From an uncultured virus (IMG/VR IMGVR_UViG_3300009376_000006) (Duplodnaviria; Heunggongvirae; Uroviricota; Caudoviricetes), in IMG/VR virus record IMGVR_UViG_3300009376_000006: a stretch of 64,000 nucleotides of DNA; one strand, given 5' to 3'. Under the pieces are notes generated by a model, which was given only the letters and a program-made list of their open reading frames with translations, did not search any database and had not been told where the DNA came from. The translations under genes were made by a program, and so were the position numbers. Below, one piece after another: positions 49,224 to 64,000 of the stretch (position 1 is the first letter of the stretch; each line of letters opens with the position of its first letter).

Positions 49224-50246
49224 ATGAGTAGCACCACTAAGTATGAAACCATTGACGAGATCGTACGGGCCGTCAACAAGAGCCACGGCGACGACATCAT
49301 CGTGCGAGGGAACCGGGTCACTGAGCCGCTCCCCCGCATCACCACTGGAATCCTCGCCTACGACATGATGCTTGGCGGGGGCTGGCCCGTCAACCAGTGG
49401 TCCGAGATCATCGGTGACGAGTCGTCTGGCAAGACCGCCATCGCCTACAAGACCATCGCCGCCAATCAAGCGCTGGACCCCAAGTGGACGGCCCTGTGGG
49501 TGGCCGCCGAAGAGTACGTGCCCGAGTACGCCGAGTCCATCGGGGTCGATCTGGACAGGCTCTGGGTCGTGGAGACCAACATCATGGAGAGCGCCTATGA
49601 CATCATCGTCCGGGCGCAGGACAACCGGTCCGTGGACTGCGTGGTCCTTGACTCCCTCCCGGCACTGGTACCGGGGGACGAGTACGAGAAGGACATGGAG
49701 GCGTTCACGGTAGGTCTAGGGGCCCGCCAGACGGGCAAGTTCTTCCGCAAGTCCACGACTGCACAGCGCCGGTCCTTGATCGAGGCTGACCGGGCCTGTA
49801 CCGGCCTCATCATCAACCAGTGGCGCGACAAGATCGGGGTCATGTGGGGCGACCCCCGTACGACGCCCGGCGGCAAGGCCAAGAACTTCCACTACTTCAC
49901 CCGTGTGGAGGTCAAGAAGGATGAGTGGCTCAAGGACGGCAAGGTGGCCGTGGGCCAGACCATCAAGGGTCGTACTATCAAGAACAAGACGTATCGTCCG
50001 CAGCAGCAGGCTGTGGTGGATTTCTACTTCGCTGATGCTGGCAACTTTCACCTCGGTGACTTTGACACCGTCAAGGACATGGTCAACATCGCCATTGCCA
50101 ATGAGTTGGTGACTAGGGCCGGGGCTTTCTACTCCTATGGGGGGGAGAAGTGGCAGGGAAAGGATAGGGTGTTAGCAGCGGTGCGTTCCGACCTTGACAT
50201 GCAGGACCGACTCCGCAAAGAACTGTTGAGCACACTGGAGGCGTGA
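49224..50246 (+). CDS. recA: RecA/UvsX-like recombinase
   Basis: GDESSGKT, VLDSL, INQWR.KIGVMWGDP.TTPGGKA. Confidence 0.92.
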   Translation: MSSTTKYETIDEIVRAVNKSHGDDIIVRGNRVTEPLPRITTGILAYDMMLGGGWPVNQWSEIIGDESSGKTAIAYKTIAANQALDPKWTALWVAAEEYVPEYAESIGVDLDRLWVVETNIMESAYDIIVRAQDNRSVDCVVLDSLPALVPGDEYEKDMEAFTVGLGARQTGKFFRKSTTAQRRSLIEADRACTGLIINQWRDKIGVMWGDPRTTPGGKAKNFHYFTRVEVKKDEWLKDGKVAVGQTIKGRTIKNKTYRPQQQAVVDFYFADAGNFHLGDFDTVKDMVNIAIANELVTRAGAFYSYGGEKWQGKDRVLAAVRSDLDMQDRLRKELLSTLEA

Positions 50247-50506
50247 TGGATTCGTTGATGGACCGTGAGTGGGTCACCGAGGCGGCGTGCCGTGGTGCTG
50301 ACGTTGCCGTGTTTCACCCCACGAAGGGGCACAGGATGCACGAGACTCAGGCCCTCGCCAAGGAGTACTGCGAGTCCTGCACTGTGCGACAGCCCTGTCT
50401 GGAGTACGCTGTGAGGGGGCTGATTGAGGTGGGCGTATGGGGCGGCCTTTCGGCTAAGCAGCGCCGTCCCTATCGTGTGAGGTACCTGAAGGGGGAGTGG
50501 CCGTGA
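50243..50506 (+). CDS. whiB: WhiB-family transcription factor
   Basis: W...AAC...C..C.VR..CL...GVWGGLS..QR. Confidence 0.92.
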   Translation: MMDSLMDREWVTEAACRGADVAVFHPTKGHRMHETQALAKEYCESCTVRQPCLEYAVRGLIEVGVWGGLSAKQRRPYRVRYLKGEWP

Positions 50507-50640
50507 GGGCCCCCAAGGGTCCCCGCAACATGGGTAGAACTACCCAGTTTGTGAGAAGGCCCCCGGACAGGGGCCTCCCCCCCGGTAAGAAACTTCTCAA
50601 GTTGCTGAAGCGGAACACGGTTAAGCGGAGGTTCCCATGA
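50503..50640 (+). CDS. Small basic protein, 45 aa (not in ORF track)
   Basis: GTGA/ATGA coupling at both ends; MRAPKGPRNMGRTTQFVRRPPDRGLPPGKKLLKLLKRNTVKRRFP. Confidence 0.6.
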   Translation: MRAPKGPRNMGRTTQFVRRPPDRGLPPGKKLLKLLKRNTVKRRFP

Positions 50641-50939
50641 CTGACATCCAGAAGCGCTCCAAGAAGCAGGAGGAGCGCAGCGCCGATACGTACAAGGGCA
50701 GCCGGAACGTCATGTCCGGGGCCGGATGGGTCCGCAAGAATGATGTTCGTGCCACCGACCTCCTGATCGAGAACAAGTTCACGGACAAGAAGTCGTTCTC
50801 CCTCAAGTCCGAGGAACTCGTCAAACTCGCCCGCACGGCCATCTTGGAGGACCGCATCCCCGTCCTCCAGATTGACTTGGGCGGACGGGCCTATGTAGTG
50901 TTGCTGGAAGATGACTTCGTGAGTATGGTGCAGGACTAA
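50637..50939 (+). CDS. PD-(D/E)XK nuclease, resolvase-like
   Basis: SKKQE...SGAGW..KNDV...LIENKFT. Confidence 0.65.
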   Translation: MTDIQKRSKKQEERSADTYKGSRNVMSGAGWVRKNDVRATDLLIENKFTDKKSFSLKSEELVKLARTAILEDRIPVLQIDLGGRAYVVLLEDDFVSMVQD

Positions 50940-51161
50940 ATGAAACACGTCATCCACGTCCACCAACAGAAGATCAAGAAGGGCGAACCAGCGATCATCG
51001 ACCGGACCTACAAGGGATCAAAGCACCTCACCCGGCTTCAGATTCATGGCCCCTGTGAGATCATCCATTCTCTGACACCGGACCGCTGCGGGGCGCGTGT
51101 CTGGATTGAAACGGAGGCCCCCGTGACACACGTGGCAGACAACTGGGAGGTAGAGGCATGA
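50940..51161 (+). CDS. Hypothetical protein
   Basis: IHVHQQ...I.GPC...CGARVWIET. Confidence 0.7.
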   Translation: MKHVIHVHQQKIKKGEPAIIDRTYKGSKHLTRLQIHGPCEIIHSLTPDRCGARVWIETEAPVTHVADNWEVEA

Positions 51162-52033
51162 CCGACGACGCTTGGAAGATCGAAGCCATGAAGGCGTCGA
51201 TGAAGAACCGGTCCACGCTGGTCTCCCTGATACACCCTATGCTCCTGCGAGACTACCGGGAGAACTCTGATCTGCGGGACACTGAGCACTTCCACCCCAG
51301 CGAGGTGTGCAAGCGTGACTGGTGCATCCGACAGACCATGTGCCGGATGTTCGGGGAGAAGGAGACCAACCCCGAGCGGGCCAAGTCCTTTCAGGTGCTC
51401 AACATCTTTGCCGAGGGCCACCGCATCCACCACAAGTGGCAGGAGTGGCTCAGGCAGGCCGGGGTCCTACGCGGCAAGTGGTCCTGCAACGTCTGTTACA
51501 ACACGTGGGACGGGGACGATACCTGCACCTACTGCAAGTCCCGGGACGTGACCTACCGGGAGGTCCCTGTCCATGACCACGAACACCACCTACTGGGCCA
51601 CGCTGACGGGCGCTTGGACCTGCCCGACGGCGAGGCCCTGCTGGAGGTCAAGAGCGTGGGCATCGGGACCTTCCGGTACGAGGACATGGGCCTGTTCAAC
51701 AGGTACGCCCACAAGGAGATCACCGCTGAGGAGATGTGGCGCTCGGTGAACCGGCCGTTCCTCTCCCACCTGAAGCAGGGCAGCCTGTACATGCACGCCA
51801 CCGGCATCCACCGTATGATCTTCGTCTATGAGTGGAAGGCCGGTCAGGAGGTGAAGGAGTTCACGGTCAAGTACCAGCCGGACGTTATCGCTGACGTTCT
51901 CGCTGCCTGCCGGGTCGGGCTCAAGTACCTACAGACGGGGACCCTGCCACCTGCACCTGAGTGGGCCGAGAAGGACAAGGCCCCGTGCCGCTACTGCCCC
52001 TACCGTGATTCCTGCTGGAAGGATCGTTCCTAA
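51158..52033 (+). CDS. Cas4-like PD-(D/E)XK exonuclease
   Basis: HPSE..C, G..IH, GHADG...LEVKS, Q..LY, C..CPY...C. Confidence 0.82.
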   Translation: MTDDAWKIEAMKASMKNRSTLVSLIHPMLLRDYRENSDLRDTEHFHPSEVCKRDWCIRQTMCRMFGEKETNPERAKSFQVLNIFAEGHRIHHKWQEWLRQAGVLRGKWSCNVCYNTWDGDDTCTYCKSRDVTYREVPVHDHEHHLLGHADGRLDLPDGEALLEVKSVGIGTFRYEDMGLFNRYAHKEITAEEMWRSVNRPFLSHLKQGSLYMHATGIHRMIFVYEWKAGQEVKEFTVKYQPDVIADVLAACRVGLKYLQTGTLPPAPEWAEKDKAPCRYCPYRDSCWKDRS

Positions 52034-52509
52034 TGTCTCTCCCTGAAGTCCAAGCCCGGTTCGACCTCAAGTTCACGTCCCCCGAGAGGCCCGGCAACAG
52101 CATGCCGACGCTCCCGGTGGGGCTGGACGACATGCCCGATTCGGACCTCATGTCCCTGTACAGCGAGGTGGTTGCGTGGGTCAACTACGCCAAGTCCGAA
52201 CTGACCAAGGCCGAGATTCTAGAGGAGTCGGCGCTCAGCGCTTTAAGGCAGGTTGAGGCCGAGGTTCTGCTGGACCAGTGGGAGGCCGTGGGCAAGGGCG
52301 ACCGGGTCACCATGGCCAAGGCGAGGCGGGACATTGACGAGCGTGTGGTTGCCCAGCACGAGCGCCACCAGCAGTCCCGTGCCTTTCGCAAGATGGTGAG
52401 TACCGTGTTCGACCGTGGGGAGAGGAATGCCAACGTCATCTCCCGGGAACTCAGCCGACGCATCAGCCTCGCTCCCAACGAGCGTCGCCTCCAGTGGACA
52501 GGCGCTTAG
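52033..52509 (+). CDS. Helical protein, possible UvsY-like recombination mediator
   Basis: Coiled coil ending ISRELSRR; context of RecA and nuclease. Confidence 0.5.
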   Translation: MSLPEVQARFDLKFTSPERPGNSMPTLPVGLDDMPDSDLMSLYSEVVAWVNYAKSELTKAEILEESALSALRQVEAEVLLDQWEAVGKGDRVTMAKARRDIDERVVAQHERHQQSRAFRKMVSTVFDRGERNANVISRELSRRISLAPNERRLQWTGA

Positions 52510-52745
52510 TGGGCACCTTAGATACTGAGGCTATGCGCCAACGGTTCAGCGACAGGGCTGAGGCTGTCAAGTCCCGCACCATGCCCCCGATTGCTGGAGC
52601 GGAGCGTCTAGCCTTTATCGCTCAATCACAAACGGACTACCAAGACTTCGCCATGATCGCTGATTGTGAGTTCAGCCTCAAGGGCGGGGTACTAACCATG
52701 ACGCTTGATCTACGGCCAAAGGAGGCCAGAGATTCCGATGAGTAA
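52509..52745 (+). CDS. Hypothetical protein
   Basis: TAGTG overlap; RFSDRAEAVKSRTMPPIAGAER...LTMTLDLRP. Confidence 0.7.
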   Translation: MGTLDTEAMRQRFSDRAEAVKSRTMPPIAGAERLAFIAQSQTDYQDFAMIADCEFSLKGGVLTMTLDLRPKEARDSDE

Positions 52746-53103
52746 TCCGTCCAAGAGGAAGGGCACGGCCTTTGAGGTACTCGTCAAGGAGTATTTCCAA
52801 AGGGGCCCCTTCAAAGCCGCTCACCGAGTAGCCCTATCTGGAATCAACGACACGGGCGACATCAACGGGATCATCAACCGTGAAACTGGACGGGAGGTGG
52901 CAGTCCAGTGCAAGAACCAGAAGACCTTCAAACTCAGCGAATGGTTGGACGATACTGTTGAGCAAGCAGGTAAACTAGGCAACGCCGTCCCCCTGCTGGT
53001 CGTAAAGCGTCCCGGGAAGGGCGCTCAGAGCCTCGATGAGACCTATGCGGTGATGCGGTTGTGTGATGCGGTCGCACTCTTGGAGGAGGCTGGCTACGCC
53101 TAA
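52738..53103 (+). CDS. Holliday junction resolvase (Hjc-like PD-(D/E)XK)
   Basis: SKRKGTAFE...DTGDI...VQCKN. Confidence 0.78.
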   Translation: MSNPSKRKGTAFEVLVKEYFQRGPFKAAHRVALSGINDTGDINGIINRETGREVAVQCKNQKTFKLSEWLDDTVEQAGKLGNAVPLLVVKRPGKGAQSLDETYAVMRLCDAVALLEEAGYA

Positions 53104-53146
53104 ACTATGGGGCGACACAGCAATCGTTCCATAAGGGAGTAGTCAC

Positions 53147-53443
53147 ATGTCAGAAGAGCCAACGCCCGTAGTTTCCAACGACTCCATCATCAAGGTCTCC
53201 GGCTCCAGCAACCCACAGAGCGTGGGTTCTATTCTTGCTAGGGCCATCAGTGCTGGGCACACACCCAAGATGCGGGCCATCGGCGCCAGCGCTGTGAACC
53301 AGTCAGTGAAGGCGTGCGCCATTGCCCGAGGGTTTGTGGCCCCGAGGGGTCTGGATGTCTCCTACATCATTGGATTTGATGATATTATTGGGGACAACGG
53401 TGATTCCATATCAGCGATGTTCTTCAGGCCGGTAGTTAATTGA
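53147..53443 (+). CDS. spoVS: SpoVS-family (Alba-like) protein
   Basis: KVSGSSNPQSVG...RAIGASAVNQSVKACAIARGFVAPRGLD. Confidence 0.9.
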   Translation: MSEEPTPVVSNDSIIKVSGSSNPQSVGSILARAISAGHTPKMRAIGASAVNQSVKACAIARGFVAPRGLDVSYIIGFDDIIGDNGDSISAMFFRPVVN

Positions 53444-53649
53444 AGATTCCCAACCAGAAGCAGGCCCTAGAGGCCCTCCGTGGGGAGGACGAGAACACCC
53501 GTGTCTGGCCCACCGAGGCGCCTTCCTCGGGCGGAAAGGTCAAGCGACGTGCTGCCCGGTTCAAGCGGCCTATCACTCCTGCTGGCTACGCCGCCAGCGG
53601 CGCACTCACGTCTGTAGGAGCCGTGGGCTCACAAGGAATGGGGGCGTAG
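53440..53649 (+). CDS. Hypothetical protein
   Basis: Operon packing. Confidence 0.5.
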   Translation: MKIPNQKQALEALRGEDENTRVWPTEAPSSGGKVKRRAARFKRPITPAGYAASGALTSVGAVGSQGMGA

Positions 53650-54194
53650 TGCCAATAGGACCAGACTCACACCGTGATGGGGCCCCACGCTGGGACCGCA
53701 GCACTCTGCACGACTTCGGTGCCGAAGAAGAGCACGACGTTGACCCCGTGGACGAGGGCAGGCTGTACGGTGACTCTCCGCCGATGGATGATCTTGGCGA
53801 CCTCGTGGACCCCCAGAACGGGACATACGTGGAGGACGGCACCCACGGTCAGGGGCTTGGCCAGATTGTCGAAGGCGTGGGTAATATCATCGGTGGCTCT
53901 GTAGACATGGCCCTGCACCCCCTTACCATCGGTGCCGCTGCTGGGTACTACGCAGCCAAGAGGGGTCTGGGCTCCCTCCGACGTGGTAAGGGTGGCAACG
54001 ATGGTGGCAACGAGGGCGACAGCGGCGGCGGTGGTGACTTTCCGACGCCCAGCCGCCCTGACAGAGGGGGACCGACGAGGGGATCGCTTCGGCCCCGTGA
54101 TACTACGCCGCCTAGACGTGATCCGCCGCTGAAGGGGCCGCTTCAGCGCCGTAAGCCGCCTGAGCCGCCTAGACGTGATGATCCGCTCTTGTAA
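53649..54194 (+). CDS. Hypothetical protein with Gly/Pro/Arg-rich tail
   Basis: One hydrophobic segment; PPRRD repeats. Confidence 0.6.
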   Translation: MPIGPDSHRDGAPRWDRSTLHDFGAEEEHDVDPVDEGRLYGDSPPMDDLGDLVDPQNGTYVEDGTHGQGLGQIVEGVGNIIGGSVDMALHPLTIGAAAGYYAAKRGLGSLRRGKGGNDGGNEGDSGGGGDFPTPSRPDRGGPTRGSLRPRDTTPPRRDPPLKGPLQRRKPPEPPRRDDPLL

Positions 54195-54203
54195 GGATTA
54201 GTC

Positions 54204-54716
54204 TTGCCACAGGGAACCACACCCAACGCAGCGGTCTTCGCTAACTGGAACAGCCCCTCTGAACCACCGGGGGCTGCGACCACTGCTGCCCTAGGACCAG
54301 CCCCCAACTTCAGGAGTACTAAGGACTACCTCCTGTCCGGGTACCGCACGGGCGTGGAGACGCAGTTCCCCGATGGCTACCTCGGCCCCATGGAGGGGAA
54401 CCGACGGGCCGACAAGATTCTGGGCCACATTGAACGAATGAACCTCCGGCAGTACAGCCGGGGCGTTCACAAGGGCGAGCGTATCAACCCCACCGACTAC
54501 ATCTGGCCTGATGAGTTCAACAAGTTCACCGGATTGCAGATGATGGACGCCGGACTGAAGTACGCCCCGCCCGGGATGGAGCCACAGCGCCTCACCAATG
54601 ATGGTAAGATTAGTGCCAAGGAATCCATGACCAGAGCACAGCCGGGGGCAGAGAAGATACCGGTCAATCCCGAGAGGCAGTCCCGACTAAGGCACCTGAT
54701 GCCATTGTACCGATGA
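54204..54716 (+). CDS. Hypothetical protein
   Basis: AAGGA RBS plus TTG; FPDGYLG...YSRGVHKGERI. Confidence 0.7.
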   Translation: MPQGTTPNAAVFANWNSPSEPPGAATTAALGPAPNFRSTKDYLLSGYRTGVETQFPDGYLGPMEGNRRADKILGHIERMNLRQYSRGVHKGERINPTDYIWPDEFNKFTGLQMMDAGLKYAPPGMEPQRLTNDGKISAKESMTRAQPGAEKIPVNPERQSRLRHLMPLYR

Positions 54717-54967
54717 TTAACCACCGCAACCAGCACAACGACGACCGCACCAAGACGGAAGCCTCCCGTGAGGGACGGGCCACTCTCTGGGATGTCGATC
54801 CGGTCACACAGGCTCGGGTACGGACGTACCTGTACTGGGAGCGCTTGGCGGTTCAGGAGTCCTCCGAGGAGCGTAGTGACATTGAGTTCGCTGCCCTATC
54901 CGGCCCCAATGTTGGTCCCGTTGCACGAGGTTACGAGTCCAGTAGGCACCGGAGTCCCCCCCAGTGA
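54713..54967 (+). CDS. Hypothetical protein
   Basis: ATGA coupling. Confidence 0.5.
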   Translation: MINHRNQHNDDRTKTEASREGRATLWDVDPVTQARVRTYLYWERLAVQESSEERSDIEFAALSGPNVGPVARGYESSRHRSPPQ

Positions 54968-55293
54968 ACAGCGGTGAGGGGAACGGGCATTCGTGTGAGC
55001 ATGACCGTGGTAACTGCATGTCCCATCACAAGGGACAGGCTCAGGAGGTATACGGAGGGCGCACGTCCCACGAGAACCGTCGGTTAAACGGTGACAGCAG
55101 GTTTGTCGGTGGCCGTCCTTTGGACCGTGACGCCCCGGTCCCCACACAGGCTCCGCCCGACCACACCTTCACGGTCAGGGAGTCGGTTGAACAGGAACAG
55201 TGGCGCCTGCTGATGGAGGAGACCCCCGGGGATACTCTGGGAAGTCCTTCGGTGCTGGACCCCCTGTTCTCACCGCGCCTGCCGTTCGGGTAG
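54964..55293 (+). CDS. Hypothetical protein
   Basis: GTGA coupling. Confidence 0.5.
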   Translation: MNSGEGNGHSCEHDRGNCMSHHKGQAQEVYGGRTSHENRRLNGDSRFVGGRPLDRDAPVPTQAPPDHTFTVRESVEQEQWRLLMEETPGDTLGSPSVLDPLFSPRLPFG

Positions 55294-55299
55294 GCCACC

Positions 55300-55668
55300 A
55301 TGGCAGAGAAGACGGAGCGGGGCGGGAGCCCCATCGCCCAGTCCTTCCCTATCCAGCAGTACCGGCAGAACAAGAGGCCGTGGCAGACGAGGCAGGAGTT
55401 CCTCGTGGATCAGGCCCTTGAGGCGGCCATCTCAGATCCCGAGACGATTCGCGCTACTAGGCCCGTGGTTCCTATGGAGTTGATGCCCGACTACCGGGGA
55501 TACGTGAAGCACGAGCACAACATTATGAGCGTTCTGAACACGTCACGAGCAGTACCGTCGTACCGCTCGTGGGTTTCGGGCGCTCCCGTGATGCTTCACA
55601 ACGGTTCACTCGTGGACGACACGTTCTCCGGCTCGGGGCGGTACTCGATGTCGCCACTGTGGGCGTAA
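55300..55668 (+). CDS. Hypothetical protein
   Basis: ORF with phage-like codon usage. Confidence 0.65.
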   Translation: MAEKTERGGSPIAQSFPIQQYRQNKRPWQTRQEFLVDQALEAAISDPETIRATRPVVPMELMPDYRGYVKHEHNIMSVLNTSRAVPSYRSWVSGAPVMLHNGSLVDDTFSGSGRYSMSPLWA

Positions 55669-55711
55669 CCGGTGCCCTGCTGGCTTGGTAGGAGAGTGGT
55701 AGAATAGAGGC

Positions 55712-56623
55712 ATGGCAGCACGTTATGTAAACCCCGAGAACGTGGCCGCACAGGGCCAGTCGTTCTATACCGGCCTGCACCCCGCAGAGTACGGCAGTGG
55801 TGGTGGTGGTGCCCAGAGAAACGTATACGGCGCTGGCTCCGGTGGATCGGCGGGTATCGGAGCAGACCGCACCGGCTCTGACGCTGGGCGGGCATGGGCG
55901 TACAGCCCCATCGGTATCCGCATTGGTCAGGCCAAGAGCGACACCGACCGCATTGTTGAGGCTATCAAAGCACTACCCCATGGAGAGGCAGAGGGCCTCC
56001 GTGACAAATCACGGACGGGTCCGGAGGCGCTGAAGCAACTGCGTAAGGGTAACGGGCAGTCCAACGGTGGCCAGACTCCTCCCGATGGCGGAACCCCCCC
56101 TGATAACGGAACCCCCCCTGATGACGGATTTAGTTTCGGAGGCTTCTTCGGAGGTGGCGTTGACGATGACGATGACATAATCGACGTTGAGTGGTGGGAT
56201 ACTGACCGTGGGGGTAGCCAGTCGTCCACGCGCATCGGGTCTCGCCCCGCCATCGCTCCAATGCGTGCCCTCCCAGCCCCTGCTACGGAGTCCATGGGCG
56301 GTACCGCTACACGGACCGCCAGCAGGCCCACACTGTCGCTTCCCAGATGGACGGCCGATACCCGAGCGAAGATGGACGCTCGCAATGAGCGTGACCGCGC
56401 TAAGCGGTCGGAGACTAGAGAACTAGTTGACTTAGGTAAGGGCGTGAAGAGTGGGGCCTACATGCCCGCTACTGATGCACTTTGGGCCATGAAGGGCGTC
56501 GCGTCTTCGCTCCGCGACGAGTCCGGGGACGACGAGTCCGGGTACTTCGACGCTGCGGTGAAGGGCATGTGGGGAGCCTACGCTCATCAGCCCGCTTCCC
56601 GAGCGCACTCTAGGTTTAGGTAA
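55712..56623 (+). CDS. Gly-rich hypothetical protein
   Basis: Extended -10 six nt before the ATG; PPDxGT tandem repeats. Confidence 0.65.
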   Translation: MAARYVNPENVAAQGQSFYTGLHPAEYGSGGGGAQRNVYGAGSGGSAGIGADRTGSDAGRAWAYSPIGIRIGQAKSDTDRIVEAIKALPHGEAEGLRDKSRTGPEALKQLRKGNGQSNGGQTPPDGGTPPDNGTPPDDGFSFGGFFGGGVDDDDDIIDVEWWDTDRGGSQSSTRIGSRPAIAPMRALPAPATESMGGTATRTASRPTLSLPRWTADTRAKMDARNERDRAKRSETRELVDLGKGVKSGAYMPATDALWAMKGVASSLRDESGDDESGYFDAAVKGMWGAYAHQPASRAHSRFR

Positions 56624-56661
56624 TCCACCACTCACTACTCCGTATCTGATAGGATATAGCC

Positions 56662-56871
56662 ATGGCAGTTAACGAATCCCGCTCAATGAACCAAGACATG
56701 TCGCAGGGTAAGAACGACGGCAAGTACAAGTGGCTGTCCCCTGACCGGGGAGGTGAGGTGGACTTCACCAACATCACCCGCCGGGCGCGGGAACTTCCGT
56801 GGCACTATGGTCTGGACACGGGAGGGTTCCCCGTGAAGGTTCTTTCCGAGCCTGTCGAACCCCCCAAATAG
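56662..56871 (+). CDS. Hypothetical protein
   Basis: Extended -10 six nt before the ATG. Confidence 0.65.
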   Translation: MAVNESRSMNQDMSQGKNDGKYKWLSPDRGGEVDFTNITRRARELPWHYGLDTGGFPVKVLSEPVEPPK

Positions 56872-56907
56872 AAACAACACTCGTCTACAACTTCTGGAGC
56901 ACAACCT

Positions 56908-57438
56908 ATGCCACGCCTTCTGGTGTGTAAGCCCTGCGGCGTACTCTACAACATGCGGGATTACGACGGTCCCCCGGAGTACGACATGGAACTCTTGGAC
57001 GTTATCGACCGGCACCTGTCGCAGTCTGCGGACCACCGTCCCGAGTCCCACACTTCTATGATCTTCCGGTGCGACGAAGAGACCGCCTCCAAGTTGGACA
57101 TGGAGACAGAGGTCAAACAGGAACTCCTGAAGAACGAGATCGAGGTGCGGGAGATTCGCAACGATCTCAAGGAGGACGCTCTCAAGTGCTTCTCCAAGCA
57201 CGGCCGCCCCAAGGCCGACTGTGTCGATTACTGCGACGACTCCAAGACCATCGGGCGCAAGGTTGGCGTGCCGAAGAGCAAGCGCATGTACCTCTGCATG
57301 TTCTGCCCGGTTCAGGAGCACTACCAGTACCACATCCGCAAGGACAAGGGACTGTATTCCACGAAGCACGACACTGTGGACAGGATCAAGCCGACCAGCA
57401 GGACAAACGGCAAGAAACTCTGGACCCCACGGGGCTGA
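56908..57438 (+). CDS. Cys/His-rich (Zn-binding) hypothetical protein
   Basis: C..C; C...H.RP...C.DY; LCMFCP. Confidence 0.7.
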   Translation: MPRLLVCKPCGVLYNMRDYDGPPEYDMELLDVIDRHLSQSADHRPESHTSMIFRCDEETASKLDMETEVKQELLKNEIEVREIRNDLKEDALKCFSKHGRPKADCVDYCDDSKTIGRKVGVPKSKRMYLCMFCPVQEHYQYHIRKDKGLYSTKHDTVDRIKPTSRTNGKKLWTPRG

Positions 57439-57442
57439 TCCC

Positions 57443-57925
57443 ATGATCCTCATCACGATGGACACTCTGGCCCACCCCGGGGATACGGTGGGCGAGAGGC
57501 TCCCGAGCATTGAGGGACGGCGCCTCTGGAACCTCCTGTTCCAACAGTACAATGGAAGTATCATCCTCATTGCGGATGCAAGGGACGACAGGGACCATCT
57601 TGAACACTGGCTTAAAGCGGGCAACTTCAAGCCCAGCATGATCGACTACGCCTCCGACAACAGCCCTCGGTCCAAGGTGCTCCGTGCCACGCAGTTGAGG
57701 AACGCCTTCGGGAGCGTCCACTGGTTCGTGGACGTGGACCCCTACAGCGCACAGTTGGCTCTGGAGGACGGACTCCCTACCCTCATCACGGTCACTCCGG
57801 CCGTGCCACGGTCCGAGTGGAGGGACGACCGGCCAGACAAGAAGAAACCGTGGGACTCCCTCGTGGAGGAGATCGACCGGCAGAAGATCATGCGTGCCGA
57901 GGCGAACTGGGGTGAGCGGGAGTGA
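57443..57925 (+). CDS. Hypothetical protein, possible degenerate HAD-like fold
   Basis: MILITMDTL...WL...FVDVDP pattern. Confidence 0.5.
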   Translation: MILITMDTLAHPGDTVGERLPSIEGRRLWNLLFQQYNGSIILIADARDDRDHLEHWLKAGNFKPSMIDYASDNSPRSKVLRATQLRNAFGSVHWFVDVDPYSAQLALEDGLPTLITVTPAVPRSEWRDDRPDKKKPWDSLVEEIDRQKIMRAEANWGERE

Positions 57926-59349
57926 AGGTCTACTTCGGTGGGGCGGAGAAGGGAACGTACCGTTCTATCCTTCTGTCCGCCGGGGTCACCTCGTTCGCTG
58001 TCAACCTCACACAGTTCCCCATCCCCAAGCGCAAGGCTCTGGACCTCCAAGAGAAGTTCGGCGGGGGTGACGTTCTGGTCTACGCCTCAGAGGCAGACGA
58101 GGACATTGACCGCTTCGATGCCTTCGTGCGCCAGCACCTAGACGACATTGCAGTCGTCATCGGCCCCCCTGACTACGACGGGGCATGGCTGGGCCAGAAG
58201 TATTCTCCTGTCTGGAACGACAAGGAGGACATGGAGAGGCTCGCTTGGCTCTGCGAGAAGTACGGTCGTGTGGCCATCAGTGATCGTGCAATCAACAGCA
58301 AGACACTCCCGCGCATCAACCAACTCAAGCAGCGCTGGGGGTGCCACATGACGGCCCTCACGTCGAAGGTGGACTCCATCGAGGCAGGCCCGTGGGACGC
58401 TGTGGTAGTGGGCTCGTGGACCTCGGTCATCCGCTACGGCGAGACTCAGGTCTGGGACGGCCATGGCCTCCGTCGGTACCCAGCCCAGCAGAAGGAGTCG
58501 GCCCGTAAGAAGCACCGGGCCGACATCGTCCGTCTGGGAGTGGACTACGACGAGGTAATAGACGATTCAGTGTCGTCTCTGGGCCTGCTCGCCATCCGTT
58601 CGTGGTTGGCGTGGGCCGGGGCCTATGACCCCTCGGGGACCTCATCGGGTGAGGATGAGTTTGGGCCTAGTAGCGATCAAATGATTGCTATACCCCCCGA
58701 TGAGCACGACGGGGGTTCAGGGTCTTCCAACCTCCCTGATATTGTTATCGGTACCGTTCTAGAGCGGCACGAAGACGAGAAGGTATTGCTACCGGGTCTG
58801 GGTCTGGAAACGGTCACCTCCATAGGGGAGCAAACCACCTCTGAGCAGGGGGAACACCTAGAACTGGGCCCTACAGAGGTCACCACTGTGGCCAGTACCG
58901 GGGGCCTCCTAAGACAATGCAATAATTGTTATCTGGCCTCCCGATGTCCTGCATTCAAGGAACATTCAGAATGTGGCTTCAAGTTGCCCGTGGAGATAAG
59001 GACCAAGGACCAGTTGAACGCCGTCATGCGGGTCATGCTGGAGATGCAGGCGAGCCGTGTCCTGTTCGGCCGGTTCGCTGAGGAGTTGGAGGGGCAGGGT
59101 CTGGACCCGGCACTCTCGGCCGAGATGGACCGTCTCTTCACGCTCATCGACAAGATGAAGACCGTGAACGAGTCCCGTGAGGTGCTCTCCATCTCCATGG
59201 AGTCCCGGGGCAGCAGCGGGGTCCTGTCCCGTCTCTTCGGGTCCAAGGCTGGAGAGACCGCTCGCCAACTGCCGGGCGGTGGTCTGGACGCCGAGGAGAC
59301 AGACCAGTTGTACGGGGACATCATAGACGGGACGGTGCTTGACAGATGA
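57922..59349 (+). CDS. TGT/DpdA-like TIM-barrel protein with C-terminal Cys cluster
   Basis: KVYFGG, PVW, SW...RYGET.VW motifs; CNNCYLASRCP...EC. Confidence 0.45.
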   Translation: MKVYFGGAEKGTYRSILLSAGVTSFAVNLTQFPIPKRKALDLQEKFGGGDVLVYASEADEDIDRFDAFVRQHLDDIAVVIGPPDYDGAWLGQKYSPVWNDKEDMERLAWLCEKYGRVAISDRAINSKTLPRINQLKQRWGCHMTALTSKVDSIEAGPWDAVVVGSWTSVIRYGETQVWDGHGLRRYPAQQKESARKKHRADIVRLGVDYDEVIDDSVSSLGLLAIRSWLAWAGAYDPSGTSSGEDEFGPSSDQMIAIPPDEHDGGSGSSNLPDIVIGTVLERHEDEKVLLPGLGLETVTSIGEQTTSEQGEHLELGPTEVTTVASTGGLLRQCNNCYLASRCPAFKEHSECGFKLPVEIRTKDQLNAVMRVMLEMQASRVLFGRFAEELEGQGLDPALSAEMDRLFTLIDKMKTVNESREVLSISMESRGSSGVLSRLFGSKAGETARQLPGGGLDAEETDQLYGDIIDGTVLDR

Positions 59350-59504
59350 CCGTTCGGGAGTACTTCGAGAATGACGAGGACGACCCCATCCTCTTCGACG
59401 CCTTTGGCGTGGAGGGAGATTACTGCTACTACTGTGAGGAGTACACTCCCCTCACCGATCTGTCGTGGGACGGCCTGTGCGTTGAATGCGCTGAAGAGCA
59501 GTAG
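59346..59504 (+). CDS. Small acidic zinc-finger protein, 52 aa (not in ORF track)
   Basis: ATGA coupling; CYYC...CVEC. Confidence 0.6.
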   Translation: MTVREYFENDEDDPILFDAFGVEGDYCYYCEEYTPLTDLSWDGLCVECAEEQ

Positions 59505-59506
59505 GT

Positions 59507-59899
59507 ATGCCCGGGACCCCAGAATGGAACGGTAAGGCCCCCTGTCGTGGTCGGGCGCACTTCCTGTGGTACCCGCCGATGGAGTCCAAGGACCCCAACG
59601 CTTGGTACGAGATGGGACGGGTCATGTGCTCCACCTGTCCGGTCTGGGAGGACTGTCTAGAGTACGGGCAGGGCGAACGCTGGGGCATGTGGGGCGGCCT
59701 GACCCCCAAGGAGCGTAAGAAGCCCTCCACGACGCACGGCTCGTGGATTGACTTCAGGCGTGGTTGCAGGTGCCCGGTATGCTTTGCAGCGCACGATGAT
59801 CAGATGGCTGAGGAACCGATTGACCCGGACCTGTTGCCTGACCAGACCGTTCCGGTGTATGGTGATCCGAGCAGGCTCCTGTACGACATCACGTCTTGA
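59507..59899 (+). CDS. whiB: WhiB-family protein with extra C-terminal H...CxCxxC module
   Basis: W..KAPC...CSTCPVWEDCL...GMWGGLTPKER; HG...GCRCPVC. Confidence 0.88.
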   Translation: MPGTPEWNGKAPCRGRAHFLWYPPMESKDPNAWYEMGRVMCSTCPVWEDCLEYGQGERWGMWGGLTPKERKKPSTTHGSWIDFRRGCRCPVCFAAHDDQMAEEPIDPDLLPDQTVPVYGDPSRLLYDITS

Positions 59900-59920
59900 C
59901 CCCGACACCTGCTCTCTCCT

Positions 59921-60547
59921 ATGCGCTCTATTGGTATTGTCCTGTCTAGCCTGCTAGTCTTCGCTTCGTGCGGGGGTGAGTTTGGTATCGACGCTGGTGA
60001 AAGCCGCATGCGGAGCATCAGCGGACCGGGGTTCGATTCCCCGCACCTCCACCAAGGGGCGACCGAGGAACCAAGTGCCTTCTCTGAGAACCTGAACAGG
60101 AACCCGCGCTCTCAGAAGGTCCCCTCGGTCGTCCCTGAGGACCCCCCGGTGCTGACGGTGGTCTTCCACCGGCCTGTGCCTACCACCACGACCTCCACGG
60201 TCCCTCCCACGACCACCACGACGCTCCCTCCCGAGCCGCCTACACTGGCGGAACTGATCGGACAGAACTTCGAGATGGAGGACTGGGCGTGGGCGCTTAA
60301 AGTGGCTTTCTGTGAGTCTTCCGCACAGCCCGAGGACGTGGTATCGAAAGCGGTACACAAGCGGTCGGGAGCGTCGGGCTGGTTCCAGCACCTCCCCAAG
60401 TTCTGGGAGTATCGCACCGAGGCGGCGGGAATCCCCGGGGCCGACATCATGGACCCGGTCGCCAACGTGGAGGTGGCGGCGTATCTCCTTTACCAAACGC
60501 CGCAAGGTAAAGGCCACTGGTACCCGTCCGAACACTGCTGGGGATGA
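59921..60547 (+). CDS. Lipoprotein with Thr-rich linker and lytic transglycosylase (SLT-like) domain
   Basis: Signal peptide with FASC lipobox; PTTTT linker; VAFCESS...ASGWFQ...DPVANVEVAAYL. Confidence 0.75.
   Translation: MRSIGIVLSSLLVFASCGGEFGIDAGESRMRSISGPGFDSPHLHQGATEEPSAFSENLNRNPRSQKVPSVVPEDPPVLTVVFHRPVPTTTTSTVPPTTTTTLPPEPPTLAELIGQNFEMEDWAWALKVAFCESSAQPEDVVSKAVHKRSGASGWFQHLPKFWEYRTEAAGIPGADIMDPVANVEVAAYLLYQTPQGKGHWYPSEHCWG
59952..59960 (+). promoter_or_regulatory. Extended -10 promoter for the mini-tmRNA
   Basis: TGCTAGTCT (TGnTAnnnT) ends 11 nt before G1; TTGGTA lies 18 nt upstream of the hexamer. Confidence 0.5.
59972..60054 (+). ncRNA. Mini-tmRNA: tRNA(Ala)-like domain only
   Basis: GGGGGTG/CACCTCC-ACCA acceptor stem with G3-U70; GGTATCGAC D-loop; CGCTGGTG/CATCAGCG helix; GGAC; CGGGG-TTCGATT-CCCCG T arm. 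Confidence 0.85.
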
Positions 60548-60562
60548 TGGTAAACTAGACGA

Positions 60563-61099
60563 ATGCCAGAACCAGATGGTCCACAGTTTCAGAATCTATG
60601 GCAGTCCGCCATGGACGATGCGTTTGCCAATCTTGATGCGACCTCCGACGAGGAGTTGGAGCGGCACGTGCCGGAGGCGGTAGACGAGCCAGAAGATGAC
60701 CGCCCACCGTCCCCGTTCACCGTGGTTGACGACCCCGTACAGAACGCTGTCTGGGACCGCATAATGAATCCCTACAGGGAGCAGCAAGAGCCCCCGGAGT
60801 TGGGGGAAAGTATGAGTCGGTGCGGGTACTGCGGTGAGGTCATCGACTACTGCCAAGGCCACGGCGAGGCCGAGCGCGCAGAGTTCGGATTCGACATCGA
60901 CAGCGACGAGTACGAGGCCCGGCGTGAGATGTTTGAGGCTGAACTTGACCCTGACGCATACTTCGCCCGTGACGAACCTGTTGTTCCCCCGGAAGACAAC
61001 TGGAGGGATTCTCAAAGTGTCTCCTTTAAGGATGTCTCCGACGAGGACATCGAAAAGCACGAACGGTTCTGGCGGGACCTCGGGAACAGGACCTCCTGA
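60563..61099 (+). CDS. Acidic hypothetical protein with C..C...C.H motif
   Basis: Extended -10 six nt before the ATG. Confidence 0.65.
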   Translation: MPEPDGPQFQNLWQSAMDDAFANLDATSDEELERHVPEAVDEPEDDRPPSPFTVVDDPVQNAVWDRIMNPYREQQEPPELGESMSRCGYCGEVIDYCQGHGEAERAEFGFDIDSDEYEARREMFEAELDPDAYFARDEPVVPPEDNWRDSQSVSFKDVSDEDIEKHERFWRDLGNRTS

Positions 61100-61101
61100 A
61101 C

Positions 61102-61287
61102 ATGCCGTCCCGCTTTGTGCCCCGTTGGTTCTTTCGTCCCTCCGCCCAGCCCGAGTCCGTGCAGCCACGTAAGGCTGAGCGGAGCGCTAGTCGTTCGGTG
61201 AGGGACGACATCCCCGAGGGGTACCACTCGTGGGGCGAGTACTGGGACGAGCGCCATGCTAAGGAGAACGGTCGTGAGGAGAGGTAA
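61102..61287 (+). CDS. Small hypothetical protein
   Basis: Operon packing. Confidence 0.5.
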   Translation: MPSRFVPRWFFRPSAQPESVQPRKAERSASRSVRDDIPEGYHSWGEYWDERHAKENGREER

Positions 61288-61726
61288 GCACCGCCATCTG
61301 GGGAGCGCTCAGTGGTCGGACTTCTCGCCCGAGGAGAGGCCCCTCCCGTTGCTCGCTTCCTTACGAGAGTTCTCCGAAGAGGAGATCATTCCTGCCGCCA
61401 AGGACAACCTGAGGCAGACCTTCCGTGAGGCCCCCGCCAGTGTGAAGGCGGCGAGCGCCGTCACGGCGGCGACCGGCGTGGTCGGGGCCGTGACCGGGGA
61501 CATCTCTCTCGTCAACGCTGTACCGCTCACCACCGTCGTGGCCCCGGGACTCCCGTACGCACGCAAGGGCGTGGAGTGGCTCGCAGAGAACAAGGAGAGC
61601 ACCGGTACGTGGACCGGCGGCCCGCCCAGCGACGTGCCCTTGCGACAGCGCATTCGGCAGGGGGCCCATCCCGTGCGGGGCATCAGGAACCTGTTCCGAG
61701 CGCCCGGAGAAGAAATCAGGGATTAG
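61274..61726 (+). CDS. Hypothetical protein with a hydrophobic segment
   Basis: AAGGAG RBS plus GTG at 61274. Confidence 0.6.
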   Translation: MRRGKHRHLGSAQWSDFSPEERPLPLLASLREFSEEEIIPAAKDNLRQTFREAPASVKAASAVTAATGVVGAVTGDISLVNAVPLTTVVAPGLPYARKGVEWLAENKESTGTWTGGPPSDVPLRQRIRQGAHPVRGIRNLFRAPGEEIRD

Positions 61727-61759
61727 GGGTTGCGCTCTCGCCTCTGGTGGTAGTAGGTT
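61707..61759 (+). promoter_or_regulatory. Repeated promoter, copy 1
   Basis: GAGAAGAAATC-n8-GGGGTTGCGC...GGTGGTA; similar copy at 63946. Confidence 0.65.
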
Positions 61760-61797
61760 TCCCCTCTGAGACCTGACGACCACGACTAGGAGACGAC

Positions 61798-62046
61798 ATG
61801 CCCTCCAACTACCCGCCGGGCGTGACCGGCAACGAGTTCCACATCGCTGGCTACGACAGAGAGTGGGAGGAGGACCGGTACTGCGAGCAGTGCGACGAGG
61901 AGACCACCTTCCTCATGGGACGCTACCGCCGCACCATCGACGGGTCGTGCGGAGAGTGCGGACACGACATCGCCGCTGAGTTGGACGAGTACATCGACCC
62001 CGACGCCGGGCGGGACGACTACGACCGCTGGGGCGAAAGGGTCTAG
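61798..62046 (+). CDS. Small zinc-ribbon protein
   Basis: AGGAG RBS; SNYPPGV; CEQC...CGEC. Confidence 0.75.
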   Translation: MPSNYPPGVTGNEFHIAGYDREWEEDRYCEQCDEETTFLMGRYRRTIDGSCGECGHDIAAELDEYIDPDAGRDDYDRWGERV

Positions 62047-62049
62047 TCC

Positions 62050-62346
62050 GTGGACTATGACACGAGTAAACACTCGTTCTGTGATCGTTGCGAAGAGCGG
62101 GTCGATCTGGACATGGGCCCCTATCAGGTTGTGGACGGACTCAACATCTTCGTGGAGGGCTACTACGGGGGGTTCACGGACACGCTCCCTGACGAGGTTC
62201 CCCTGAGGGTGGTGCTCTGCCACGCCTGCTGCGTCTGGCTGGCAAAGGAGATTGCGCCCGTGGCTGAGTTCGTCAAGGGCGGCCACCCGCACCCCGACGA
62301 CGGCTGGTGCTGTGAGTACGCCTACAGGTGGCCCGGCGATGGATGA
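62050..62346 (+). CDS. Small zinc-binding protein
   Basis: CDRC...GYYGGFTD...LCHAC. Confidence 0.7.
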   Translation: MDYDTSKHSFCDRCEERVDLDMGPYQVVDGLNIFVEGYYGGFTDTLPDEVPLRVVLCHACCVWLAKEIAPVAEFVKGGHPHPDDGWCCEYAYRWPGDG

Positions 62347-62677
62347 GATCAACCCCCCCGAGACGGAGGACCTCTGGATGAAAGATGAGGACCTCTGGAT
62401 GAACCTGATGGACCGGGACATCTTCCTTGACCATGTCCGCAGCCTACCTGACGTTTATACGGTTGACGAGTGGGACCTGAACGACGATGTTGGAAGGCTG
62501 ATGGACTCGGCGCTAGAGTTCACGGTGACACACAAGAACTGGGTCGGGCACGTGGCCCGGTACGGAAGCGAGTGGGTGCTTTATGTCAAAGACCAAGAAC
62601 GGAATGATGGACTCCTTGACATGGTCGAGGCTTATCACTGGATTCAGAGAGACCCTGAGGAGGCTCCAGATGCGTGA
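62339..62677 (+). CDS. Hypothetical protein
   Basis: Overlapping start; EDLWM tandem duplication. Confidence 0.6.
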   Translation: MDEINPPETEDLWMKDEDLWMNLMDRDIFLDHVRSLPDVYTVDEWDLNDDVGRLMDSALEFTVTHKNWVGHVARYGSEWVLYVKDQERNDGLLDMVEAYHWIQRDPEEAPDA

Positions 62678-62939
62678 CGGGCCGAGCGAGCACTTCTGGG
62701 AGGAGTTGGGTATTCTCAACCCCGACGCCGTCCGGTTCGACGGGCTGGACCACTGCGTCCTCGGGCTCGGTGGCCAGTTCTCCATGGACCCGGTCTTGGT
62801 CTACGACTACGACCTGATGATCGAACACTTTCTCTTCAACGACAACCTGACCTACGAGGAGGCCGTAGAGCACGTTGACTTCAACGTGGTCGGCCTCTGG
62901 GCTGGTCCCCATACACCTATCATCATGCGAGGAGCGTGA
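62670..62939 (+). CDS. Hypothetical phage protein
   Basis: GGAGG RBS; DGLD.C.LG...VYDYD...EEAVEH.DFNV.G.W.G..TP. Confidence 0.75.
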   Translation: MRDGPSEHFWEELGILNPDAVRFDGLDHCVLGLGGQFSMDPVLVYDYDLMIEHFLFNDNLTYEEAVEHVDFNVVGLWAGPHTPIIMRGA

Positions 62940-62940
62940 C

Positions 62941-63327
62941 ATGACCCTAAGCGAAGAAGCACGAGAGTTCAACGAGCGACAGAAGAGGTACAAGGAGCAG
63001 GAGCACCTGCACAAGTACACGGCCGGGGCCGACCACCGGGAGACGATGGAGGCTCTCAGCAAGATTGAGGAGGCCCTCCTGAGGATCAACGGTCTGCTGA
63101 ATCGGATCGTTGAGCAGCAGGACGACCGCCAGCGCCAGTTCCGCACGCCCTATCGGACCCAGCGTTCCAGCCACGAGTGGGTGCCCTACTTCGATGACTA
63201 CGGAGGGCACTACCGGACTCCCTACCGTCGTCCCGCCCCGGGCTCGCACCCCCGCCACGAGACCGACACCTTCGATCAGGGACAGACCGAGGGGACCGTC
63301 CCGCCGGAGGACCCCCATGAGTTGTGA
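62941..63327 (+). CDS. Hypothetical protein
   Basis: GAGGAG RBS; coiled coil; RTPYR twice. Confidence 0.6.
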   Translation: MTLSEEAREFNERQKRYKEQEHLHKYTAGADHRETMEALSKIEEALLRINGLLNRIVEQQDDRQRQFRTPYRTQRSSHEWVPYFDDYGGHYRTPYRRPAPGSHPRHETDTFDQGQTEGTVPPEDPHEL

Positions 63328-63571
63328 GCGGGACGACCTCTCCTCGCTGTACTGGGGCGGTGCTGTGGTTACCACCACGATGATGGTCGCCACCAACGAG
63401 GCCGCCGACACCTACCGCACGCCGTTCGGCTACAAAAGCGTCTGGAAGATCGACGGCGAGGACCCTAGGGGAGTCAAGGGCAAGGCGGGCCAGAGTCGCA
63501 CCTTCCCCCGCACGGACACGCCCCCTCCCCGGAAGGTCCAGTCCAAGCGCAAGTACCGCCGGGCCTCCTGA
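63317..63571 (+). CDS. Hypothetical protein
   Basis: GGAGG RBS plus ATG at 63317. Confidence 0.5.
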   Translation: MSCERDDLSSLYWGGAVVTTTMMVATNEAADTYRTPFGYKSVWKIDGEDPRGVKGKAGQSRTFPRTDTPPPRKVQSKRKYRRAS

Positions 63572-63661
63572 ACCCCGTCGGACAGGGACCCCCCGGCCGA
63601 CCCTAAACAGAGAACAAACATCACACGTACATTCAGAGGCGCTTAAAGGAGCACTAGACAC

Positions 63662-63940
63662 ATGCCGAATACCATACACACGCACGCCGACCCGATGACC
63701 CTCACGCTCACGCTGAGCGTGGACCTCGGACGGGAGGAGGAACTGCACCGGGAGTGGGAGGAGCACGAGACCTCGCCCCGGCCCTTCCATGACGAGGCGA
63801 TCCTGCGAGCCATGGAACTGGTGGGCTTCTTCGTGGATCAGGGGTCCATCGACATCGGGGGCTGGGAGATGGCCGTGGACGGGGGCTGGGTCTCCCTGAA
63901 CCGGACGGTCGTGGAGCGTGGCCCGGACGGGCCGTTCTAG
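63662..63940 (+). CDS. Hypothetical protein
   Basis: AAAGGAG RBS. Confidence 0.7.
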   Translation: MPNTIHTHADPMTLTLTLSVDLGREEELHREWEEHETSPRPFHDEAILRAMELVGFFVDQGSIDIGGWEMAVDGGWVSLNRTVVERGPDGPF

Positions 63941-63945
63941 GCCCC

Positions 63946-64000
63946 GAGAAGAAATCTGAAGTTGGGGGTTGCGCCGCCGAACCCACGGTGGTAAAACATT
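63946..64000 (+). promoter_or_regulatory. Repeated promoter, copy 2
   Basis: GAGAAGAAATC-n8-GGGGTTGCGC-17nt-TAAAAC. Confidence 0.65.

Follow-up and report, generated by a model that had tools for sequence, protein, structure and literature searches.

A short tmRNA-like gene beside a WhiB gene in a marine phage genome

The window, by which we mean the whole 64,000-nt stretch of DNA analyzed here, represents a phage genome with genes for terminase, portal, major head protein, tail sheath and baseplate. It also encodes DnaB, primase, a family-A DNA polymerase and a UvsX-like recombinase. The presence of two WhiB genes (50243-50506 and 59507-59899) suggests that the host is actinobacterial, and the sequencing runs that contain window DNA, all of them DNA runs, bear marine or seawater metagenome labels. 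A megablast search of window positions 50000-64000 against phages returned no match.

The subject of this study is an 83-nt gene for a TLD-only (tag-less) mini-tmRNA at 59972-60054 on the + strand, flanked on one side by the second WhiB gene and on the other by a small downstream gene that probably starts at GTG 60149. The product of the latter gave only a weak SLT match (19.6 bits, below the cut-off). Upstream, a Tgt/DpdA-like gene (PHROG 887) occupies 57922-59349. A long ORF (59921-60547) overlies the RNA gene; its sequence is unlikely to be truly coding over the RNA stretch, because the indels of relatives in this region are not multiples of three. A consensus scan of 59300-60700 found no sigma-70-like promoter site, and a terminator scan of the same interval found one terminator-like site, which is at chance level and overlaps the 5' end of the mini-tmRNA gene. 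An inverted repeat at 60055-60130 was considered as a terminator and rejected, as it folds no better than its shuffles (z -0.03). Contigs of three other runs, compared over 59300-60409, showed just three differences, none of them inside the mini-tmRNA gene, a number too small for any conclusion on strain variation. The nearest virus record (G001) carries an identical copy of the 83-nt element.

The initial annotation had singled out an 83-nt element with an intact Ala-tRNA-like domain, and direct reading places the string that it quoted at 59972-60054. When both strands of the 64 kb were scanned with Rfam at gathering threshold, a single family was matched, namely tmRNA (RF00023), at this same position, with a score of 73.9 bits (gathering score 47) and an E-value of 7.5e-27. 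The match spans model positions 1-374, with approximately 300 inner positions reduced to 10 nt. Both ends of a tmRNA are thus matched around an internal deletion, as had been expected from the initial reading.

The 5' strand of the acceptor stem, GGGGGTG (59972-59978), pairs at seven of seven positions, as counted by script, with the 3' strand, CACCTCC (60044-60050). Its third pair is a G3-T70 wobble, made by G3 at 59974 and U70 at 60048; G3-U70 is the AlaRS identity pair. The discriminator A73 (60051) and an encoded CCA end (60052-60054) could be read directly and complete the Ala-tRNA-like features originally described. Downstream of the 5' acceptor strand lies a stemless D-loop analogue, AGTTTGGTATCGA (59979-59991), which the tmRNA model aligns with columns marked as single-stranded (',,,'). 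Helix P2 is formed by CGCTGGTG (59992-59999) and CATCAGCG (60016-60023), with eight pairs of which one is G-T. The GAC junction that follows (60024-60026) makes up, together with the preceding G, the GGAC motif of tmRNA and fits the RF00023 consensus cGGAC, so that the tmRNA-type architecture of D-loop and junction claimed at the outset holds. The T arm, CGGGG-TTCGATT-CCCCG (60027-60043), is perfect, with five of five pairs by script, again in agreement with the first description.

Inside P2 lie 16 nt (60000-60015), which had been read as a plain loop closing an 8-bp helix. The helix stands with its eight pairs, but the loop does not. It consists of an A-rich bulge, AAAG (60000-60003), and a 3-bp mini-hairpin, CCG (60004-60006)/CATG/CGG (60011-60013), followed by AG (60014-60015), and this inner cap covaries across the family described below. 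The 83-nt gene contains no tag frame, resume codon or pseudoknot. A canonical tmRNA was considered for 59972-60054 and rejected, given a total length of 83 nt, an inner segment of 16 nt and the silence of ARAGORN, a program that needs a tag peptide.

The T arm and acceptor stem are as in any tRNA, yet we see next to no chance that the element is an ordinary tRNA, a Y RNA or a chance look-alike. ARAGORN made no tRNA or tmRNA call across the window, and the tRNA model RF00005 had no match at E <= 0.001 in G001, with its identical element, or in records G405 and G406. The Deinococcus_Y_RNA model reached 15.9 bits (E 2.9), short of its cut-off of 80, and a chance resemblance is countered by the tmRNA E-value given above. 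The search for a better tRNA or Y-RNA match therefore yielded none.

By single-sequence folding, the 83-nt gene had a minimum free energy of -36.5 kcal/mol (z -1.85), which was equalled by eight of 200 shuffles. The corresponding structure retained the acceptor stem and missed the T arm. As the fold of the lone sequence is unremarkable, the case rests on comparison with other sequences.

Conservation of the element and covariation across a phage RNA family

Two viral contigs, L276 and L277, encode a Tgt-like protein 72% identical to that of the window, and the record of the second (G405; 100 kb) is 100% complete by CheckV. At the corresponding spot, both contigs have an 83-nt RF00023 match of 54.2 bits. 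The RNA is identical to that of the window at 62 of 83 positions, compared with 30 of 78 and 42 of 111 (38%) in the aligned flanks. The two RNAs do not differ in the acceptor stem, T arm or cap hairpin. In P2, four pairs show double compensatory changes (GC to AT, CG to GC, TA to CG and GC to AT) and two further pairs are changed on one side with pairing retained, whereas the two innermost pairs are lost. On this comparison, the mini-tmRNA is maintained at one spot while the DNA on either side has been scrambled by divergence.

Beyond these relatives, blastn revealed related, unannotated elements in five Streptomyces phages, where they lie within tRNA arrays; the copy in phage GiJojo underlies a 'hypothetical protein' annotation. 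Cultured phages of Streptomyces lividans, among them LuckySocke and Shaeky, carry members of the family. RF00023 scores were 57-61 bits for the Streptomyces phage copies and 43.2 bits for the element of Mycobacterium phage DS6A. By reading, two T-stem pairs are mismatched in the copy of Streptomyces phage Alone3, and some members of the family may thus be decaying. A separate blastn match, in Ruegeria phage RpAliso, covers query positions 125-168 only, which is the T-arm part.

A strict search pattern (TCGAC, 18-44 nt, GGACNNGGGTTCGANTCCC) recovered at least 119 viral-contig loci. Among the 119 listed, 10 are without an acceptor stem and the others, at least 109, represent 87 distinct sequences. 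Among these listed matches, G3 and T70 occur together in 84 of the 87, A73 is present in all 87, and CCA is encoded in 16 of the 87. ARAGORN called none of the minis at the 119 listed viral loci. Standard annotation tools thus miss the TLD-only mini-tmRNA family.

A family model, R1, was built from 12 of the distinct minis, all of them from phages other than that of the window. When 100 sources were searched with it (the window, DS6A, four Streptomyces phage loci and 94 viral loci), 93 matches were obtained, of which four are weak and probably not minis. The window element scored 84.8 bits, the L276 and L277 elements 64.9 bits and DS6A 28478-28560 60.1 bits. Pairs were counted in an alignment of the 93 rows fitted to R1 (A4). 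A MAFFT alignment of 81 of the 87 unique viral minis and six others was dropped for this purpose because its 5' ends were misaligned owing to differing D-loop lengths, and the model-based A4 was used instead. The search pattern itself preset TCGAC, GGAC, the T loop and three T-stem pairs.

In A4, 96.4% of 2070 pair cells pair, compared with 40.5-51.6% in slid controls. Changes on both sides of a pair were found in 565 cells (slid controls, 88-112) and the covariation score was 0.627 (slid controls, 0.05-0.09). Not one of 500 shuffles equalled these figures for pairing, both-side changes or covariation score. Acceptor pair 3 is G-U in 91 of the 93 rows, while its neighbors, pairs 4, 5 and 6, show both-side changes in 30, 36 and 28 rows, respectively. 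Both-side changes affect seven of the eight P2 pairs. In the T arm the two outer pairs covary, the three inner ones being those preset by the pattern. D-loop GG and TCGA are conserved in two further alignments, A1 and A2, with TCGAC again preset by the pattern. Homologues of the element therefore retain both pairing and G3-U70.

The inner cap follows the same trend, with the three modelled cap-helix pairs paired in 96.7% of A4 cells and all of them showing both-side changes. The inner segment measures 16-17 nt in 63 of 93 rows. The motif CCGCAYGCGG occurs in 32 of 93 rows; those of the window, DS6A and the Streptomyces phages are among them, and DS6A and the window have the longer inner motif GAAA-CCGCAYGCGG in common. 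The cap is absent from the full-length actinobacterial tmRNAs examined. For this reason, at least the minis of the CCGCAYGCGG type, which make up a large subset of the phage minis, look related by descent, as opposed to having arisen by repeated fresh deletions of host genes.

Judged from these sequence comparisons, 59972-60054 is a phage gene for a TLD-only tmRNA that is under selection. The initial annotation had proposed a maintained tag-less tmRNA mimic, and this proposal is borne out by the RF00023 match at both ends, the compensatory changes in relatives, the covariation of the family and the retention of G3-U70 and A73. It adds a new member, so far without annotation, to a family of phage RNAs that has been little studied.

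Host-like features and possible functions

We searched 401 Actinomycetota genomes, a tally that includes 12 flagged as unpublished, from which no sequence is used, with the 83 nt. The 3' part of the element was matched in 235 of the 401, and the best matches (97% over 37 nt and 100% over 32 nt) fall at the 3' ends of tmRNAs that are full-length (344-363 nt). Some Actinomycetota ssrA genes have an acceptor stem (GGGGGTG/CACCTCC), T arm and CCA end identical to those of the window mini-tmRNA, and they have the tmRNA-type D-loop and GAC/GGAC junction in common with it. Compared with a canonical tmRNA, approximately 270 nt are missing from the mini-tmRNA, comprising the resume codon, the tag frame, all pseudoknots and most of helix 2. 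Over its first 22 nt, just 10-12 positions are the same as in the matching Actinomycetota tmRNAs. With an acceptor stem and T arm shared with host-type tmRNAs, the phage RNA would look like a host molecule to AlaRS, EF-Tu and RNase P. The same search pattern was run on bacterial genomes, where, among 121 loci listed, two are minis by R1 (L211, 76 bits; L224, 55.5 bits). With scores of no more than 39 bits, the remaining listed bacterial loci represent the 3' portion of ordinary tmRNAs; these figures are not a measure of prevalence.

A stretch of 32-37 nt is the typical length of an attP core. In a few Actinomycetota genomes the last 32-37 nt of the element are 97-100% identical to tmRNA 3' ends, and the element could accordingly be read as an unexpressed relic of integration, either an attP core that matches the 3' end of host ssrA or a piece of ssrA acquired by imprecise excision. 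We give this reading hardly any credence. The 3' part alone would suffice for such a role, yet the element also has a 5' acceptor strand, D-loop and P2, which covary, and the inner cap is missing from the matching host tmRNAs. Furthermore, neither a tyrosine integrase (PF00589) nor a resolvase-type serine recombinase (PF00239) was found in G001, G405 or G406, which makes an attachment-site role unlikely, and neither enzyme was found among the window ORFs scanned.

With regard to protein partners, no SmpB was found in G001, G405 (complete), G406, LuckySocke or DS6A, and no RF-1/ArfB-type domain or Pth in five records. The mini-tmRNA must therefore work with host proteins. As the tRNA model found no match in G001, G405 or G406, the mini-tmRNA is the only tRNA-like gene of this marine actinobacterial phage lineage, within a family that extends to at least 109 viral-contig loci.

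Trans-translation is the main bacterial ribosome-rescue route and a proposed antibiotic target. The initial annotation had suggested that the mimic could titrate SmpB, act at stalled ribosomes without tagging, or serve as a decoy, and each of these may be weighed against the sequence evidence. We think it reasonably likely that the phage gene specifies a functional TLD-only tmRNA that acts as a charged competitor of host tmRNA and uncouples rescue from tagging. According to this model, the mini RNA would be excised from a phage transcript and alanylated by host AlaRS via G3-U70 and A73. Host SmpB and EF-Tu would then bind the alanylated RNA, allowing it to compete with host full-length tmRNA for entry into stalled ribosomes whose A site is empty. 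The nascent chain would be accepted on the alanine of the mini-tmRNA with no message being supplied, and, in the absence of a message, rescue would be uncoupled from ssrA tagging. Host trans-translation would be lowered in two ways, by competition at stalled ribosomes and by occupancy of SmpB. By such means, the mini-tmRNA probably diverts the rescue-and-tagging system of the host. After alanine transfer, the ribosome would still be without a stop codon; as noted, the five records yielded no phage release factor or Pth.

RNA of the DS6A form has been reported to inhibit endogenous tmRNA in E. coli, and this inhibition is reported not to need charging (PMC4131195 and PMC11915505, in their accessible text on Mao et al. 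2009). The published inhibition fits a charged competitor. Given that charging was dispensable in E. coli, however, inhibition would explain the near-universal G3-U70 just in part. The near-universal presence of AlaRS identity elements suggests that charging of the mini-tmRNA, and hence its entry into ribosomes, matters in nature. The near-absolute alanine identity pair thus poses the question of whether these RNAs soak up SmpB or enter ribosomes and add alanine without a tag.

At one extreme, the RNA might be a pure sponge that shuts trans-translation down by tying up host SmpB, perhaps along with RNase R or further partners of tmRNA, with no need to be charged or to enter ribosomes. Conservation of the D-loop and the GAC/GGAC junction, which form the SmpB side of the TLD, would be in keeping with this. 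We nevertheless consider it very unlikely, since a sponge leaves unexplained why G3-U70 (91 of 93), A73 (87 of 87 among the matches listed) and a perfect 7-bp acceptor stem persist while neighboring pairs drift.

These same identity elements argue for selected charging, which a pure sponge would not need, and would favor productive, tag-free rescue. Here, the charged mini-tmRNA and host SmpB would form a cheap rescue RNA that serves to recycle ribosomes in infected cells and not to inhibit the host system, with one or several alanines added on non-stop ribosomes and the chain freed by host factors, through ArfB-type hydrolysis or through drop-off and then Pth. There are precedents in organelles. 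Jacob et al. are said to have described, in 2004, a CDS-less tmRNA in jakobid mitochondria, where it is likewise the sole tmRNA. In Mallomonadaceae plastids, a CDS-less tmRNA of approximately 65 bp is the sole tmRNA, according to the accessible text of PMC11915505. The published test in E. coli, on the other hand, is reported to have shown inhibition of tmRNA instead (PMC4131195, PMC11915505), and no phage-encoded release factor, ArfB-type domain or Pth by which the chain might be freed was found in five records. On balance, tag-free rescue appears fairly unlikely.

A more far-reaching idea, which we regard as distinctly unlikely, is that natural TLD-only tmRNAs are template-free alanine-tailing RNAs that are charged repeatedly and, with host SmpB, append runs of alanine to nascent chains on ribosomes that have an empty A site. 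It would explain why AlaRS identity is near exceptionless despite the reported charging-free inhibition in E. coli. If true, phages would be driving the addition of C-terminal Ala tails on 70S ribosomes, with an outcome resembling RqcH-type Ala tailing, and the choice of proteins for degradation in infected cells could shift as a result.

Finally, phage tRNA arrays are often explained as counter-defence, and the Streptomyces phage copies lie within such arrays. Together with the status of the mini-tmRNA as the only tRNA-like gene in a lineage without tRNAs, this might indicate a decoy or shield that has no part in translation and instead soaks up a toxin, namely a host defence enzyme directed at tmRNA or at the acceptor ends of tRNAs. 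The mini-tmRNA has no anticodon loop, however, so anticodon nucleases cannot be decoyed. No defence-related gene was seen adjoining it, and a decoy would leave the conservation of the tmRNA-specific D-loop and junction unexplained. A decoy role therefore seems highly improbable, and competition by a charged mini-tmRNA remains our preferred reading.

Comparison with known full-length and tag-less tmRNAs

Full-length tmRNAs are known from several phages, including the mycobacteriophage Bxz1 group and Bacillus phage G (PMC4131195, accessible text) and the marine phage Melnitz (PMC9004378, accessible text). These have a tag reading frame and are detected by ARAGORN, neither of which applies to the mini-tmRNA.

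The CDS-less tmRNAs of jakobid mitochondria and Mallomonadaceae plastids, likened here by description, also consist of little beyond a tRNA-like domain and have no tag frame. They differ in being the only tmRNA of the organelle itself, with an organelle-targeted SmpB, whereas the phage mini-tmRNA would be an extra copy that enters a cell already equipped with a full tmRNA.

Closer in construction are the TLD fragments made in the laboratory (Gutmann 2003, Bessho 2007, Shimizu and Ueda 2006 and Neubauer 2012, as described in the accessible text of PMC3929946), which join the same 5' and 3' ends through a short capped helix. TLD and SmpB together mimic a whole tRNA. SmpB binding and ribosome entry with EF-Tu have been described for such fragments, as has their support, with SmpB, of polyalanine synthesis without mRNA (PMC3929946). 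The laboratory fragments are derived from bacterial tmRNA and bear a UUCG cap; in contrast, the window mini-tmRNA is natural and bears an A-rich bulge and a covarying cap.

The closest counterpart is the element of phage DS6A (JN698994.1, 28478-28560; tmRNA Website tmID 11587), listed among tmRNAs as 'Mycobacterium phage DS6A (TLD only)' by Hudson, Lau and Williams in 2014 (PMC4131195, accessible text). In a literature search that extended to few subscription journals, DS6A was the sole phage tag-less tmRNA named and the breadth of the family was undescribed. Like the window element, that of DS6A is phage-borne and 83 nt in length, and both have G3-U70, A73, a stemless D-loop, a P2 stub and a T arm, with no tag frame. 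The two differ in the sequences of acceptor stem, P2 and T stem, and at the 3' end, where CCA is encoded in the window and CTA in DS6A. In addition, the DS6A element falls below the RF00023 cut-off of 47 bits, unlike that of the window, and DS6A is annotated with a tyrosine integrase, whereas the marine, myovirus-like lineage of the window is without integrase and without tRNAs. Taken together, by shared structure and family-model score, the window element belongs to the phage family of the published DS6A 'TLD only' tmRNA, and is thus of a kind already known.

Genes flanking the mini-tmRNA and a possible promoter

The nearest upstream neighbour of the mini-tmRNA gene (window 59972-60054, + strand) is a WhiB-family gene at 59507-59899 (+; Pfam PF02467, E 1e-10), which ends 72 nt before the mini-tmRNA begins. 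Another WhiB-family gene lies further upstream at 50243-50506 (+; PF02467, E 9.7e-19). Approximately 620 nt separate the mini-tmRNA from a Tgt/DpdA-like gene at 57922-59349 (+), the 475-aa product of which matched PHROG 887, 'queuine tRNA-ribosyltransferase' (E 5.7e-33), and had no match to any Pfam family at E <= 0.001. This protein is possibly a DNA-modification enzyme of the DpdA (7-deazaguanine) type. In two related viral contigs, L276 and L277, the Tgt-like gene is also upstream, with a gap of approximately 690 nt to the mini-tmRNA.

The upstream flanks of the window and of these two contigs have diverged, apart from a common TGCTAGT motif. Just 5' of the mini-tmRNA, two hexamers of the form TANNNT were found on the + strand, TAGCCT at 59947-59952 and TAGTCT at 59955-59960, which may represent a -10 element of the actinobacterial type. 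A sigma-70 promoter scan around the mini-tmRNA found no site. Downstream, a small gene at 60149-60547 (+) encodes a product that is rich in Thr and Pro towards its N terminus and matches the SLT lytic transglycosylases only weakly (19.6 bits, below the cut-off of 21.3). In other strains, the 3' half of this gene is much more variable than the mini-tmRNA region.

Metagenome depth over the 3' part of the mini-tmRNA

In sequencing runs X3, X5, X6 and X8, contig depth leaps at window 60005-60051, across the T arm and the 3' strand of the acceptor stem, reaching 1220 in X3, for instance, and the stretch is bordered by loose ends on either side. The 60005-60051 segment is common to the tmRNA/tRNA 3' ends of many other organisms in the same metagenomes. 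One of the loose ends is similar to actinobacterial tmRNAs, those of loci L166 and L242, in their 3' region.

Family members in other phages and in a bacterial MAG

The mini copy of Streptomyces phage Alone3 (L005:387-466) scored 70.5 bits with R1, our covariance model built from 12 viral family members. When its sequence was read by eye, the T stem appeared to have two unpaired positions (GCGGG vs CCCAG) and helix P2 appeared weakened, suggesting that this may be a decaying copy. The mini-tmRNA of Streptomyces phage GiJojo lies directly beneath gene 44 (L004:389-631), a CDS annotated as a 'hypothetical protein' that is probably a mis-annotation. Two viral contigs, L052 and L064, carry minis of 98 nt, with an inner arm of 29 nt vs the usual 16-17 nt; it is in this arm that the mini-tmRNA family varies.

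Both a full-length tmRNA (C55:13184-13522, 151.5 bits) and a mini-tmRNA (C178:1497-1576, 67.7 bits) were present on separate contigs of one bacterial MAG, G004. The contig carrying the mini is 1,622 nt in length and is probably phage or prophage DNA that was binned with its host.

tRNA content of the phage lineage

ARAGORN made no tRNA calls across window 1-64000, and no RF00005 matches were obtained in three related virus records (G001, G405 and G406), one of which is a complete genome of 100 kb. The mini-tmRNA is the sole tRNA-like gene of this phage lineage. Whereas the mini copies of Streptomyces phages lie within large tRNA arrays, that of the window's lineage occurs in genomes without tRNA genes.
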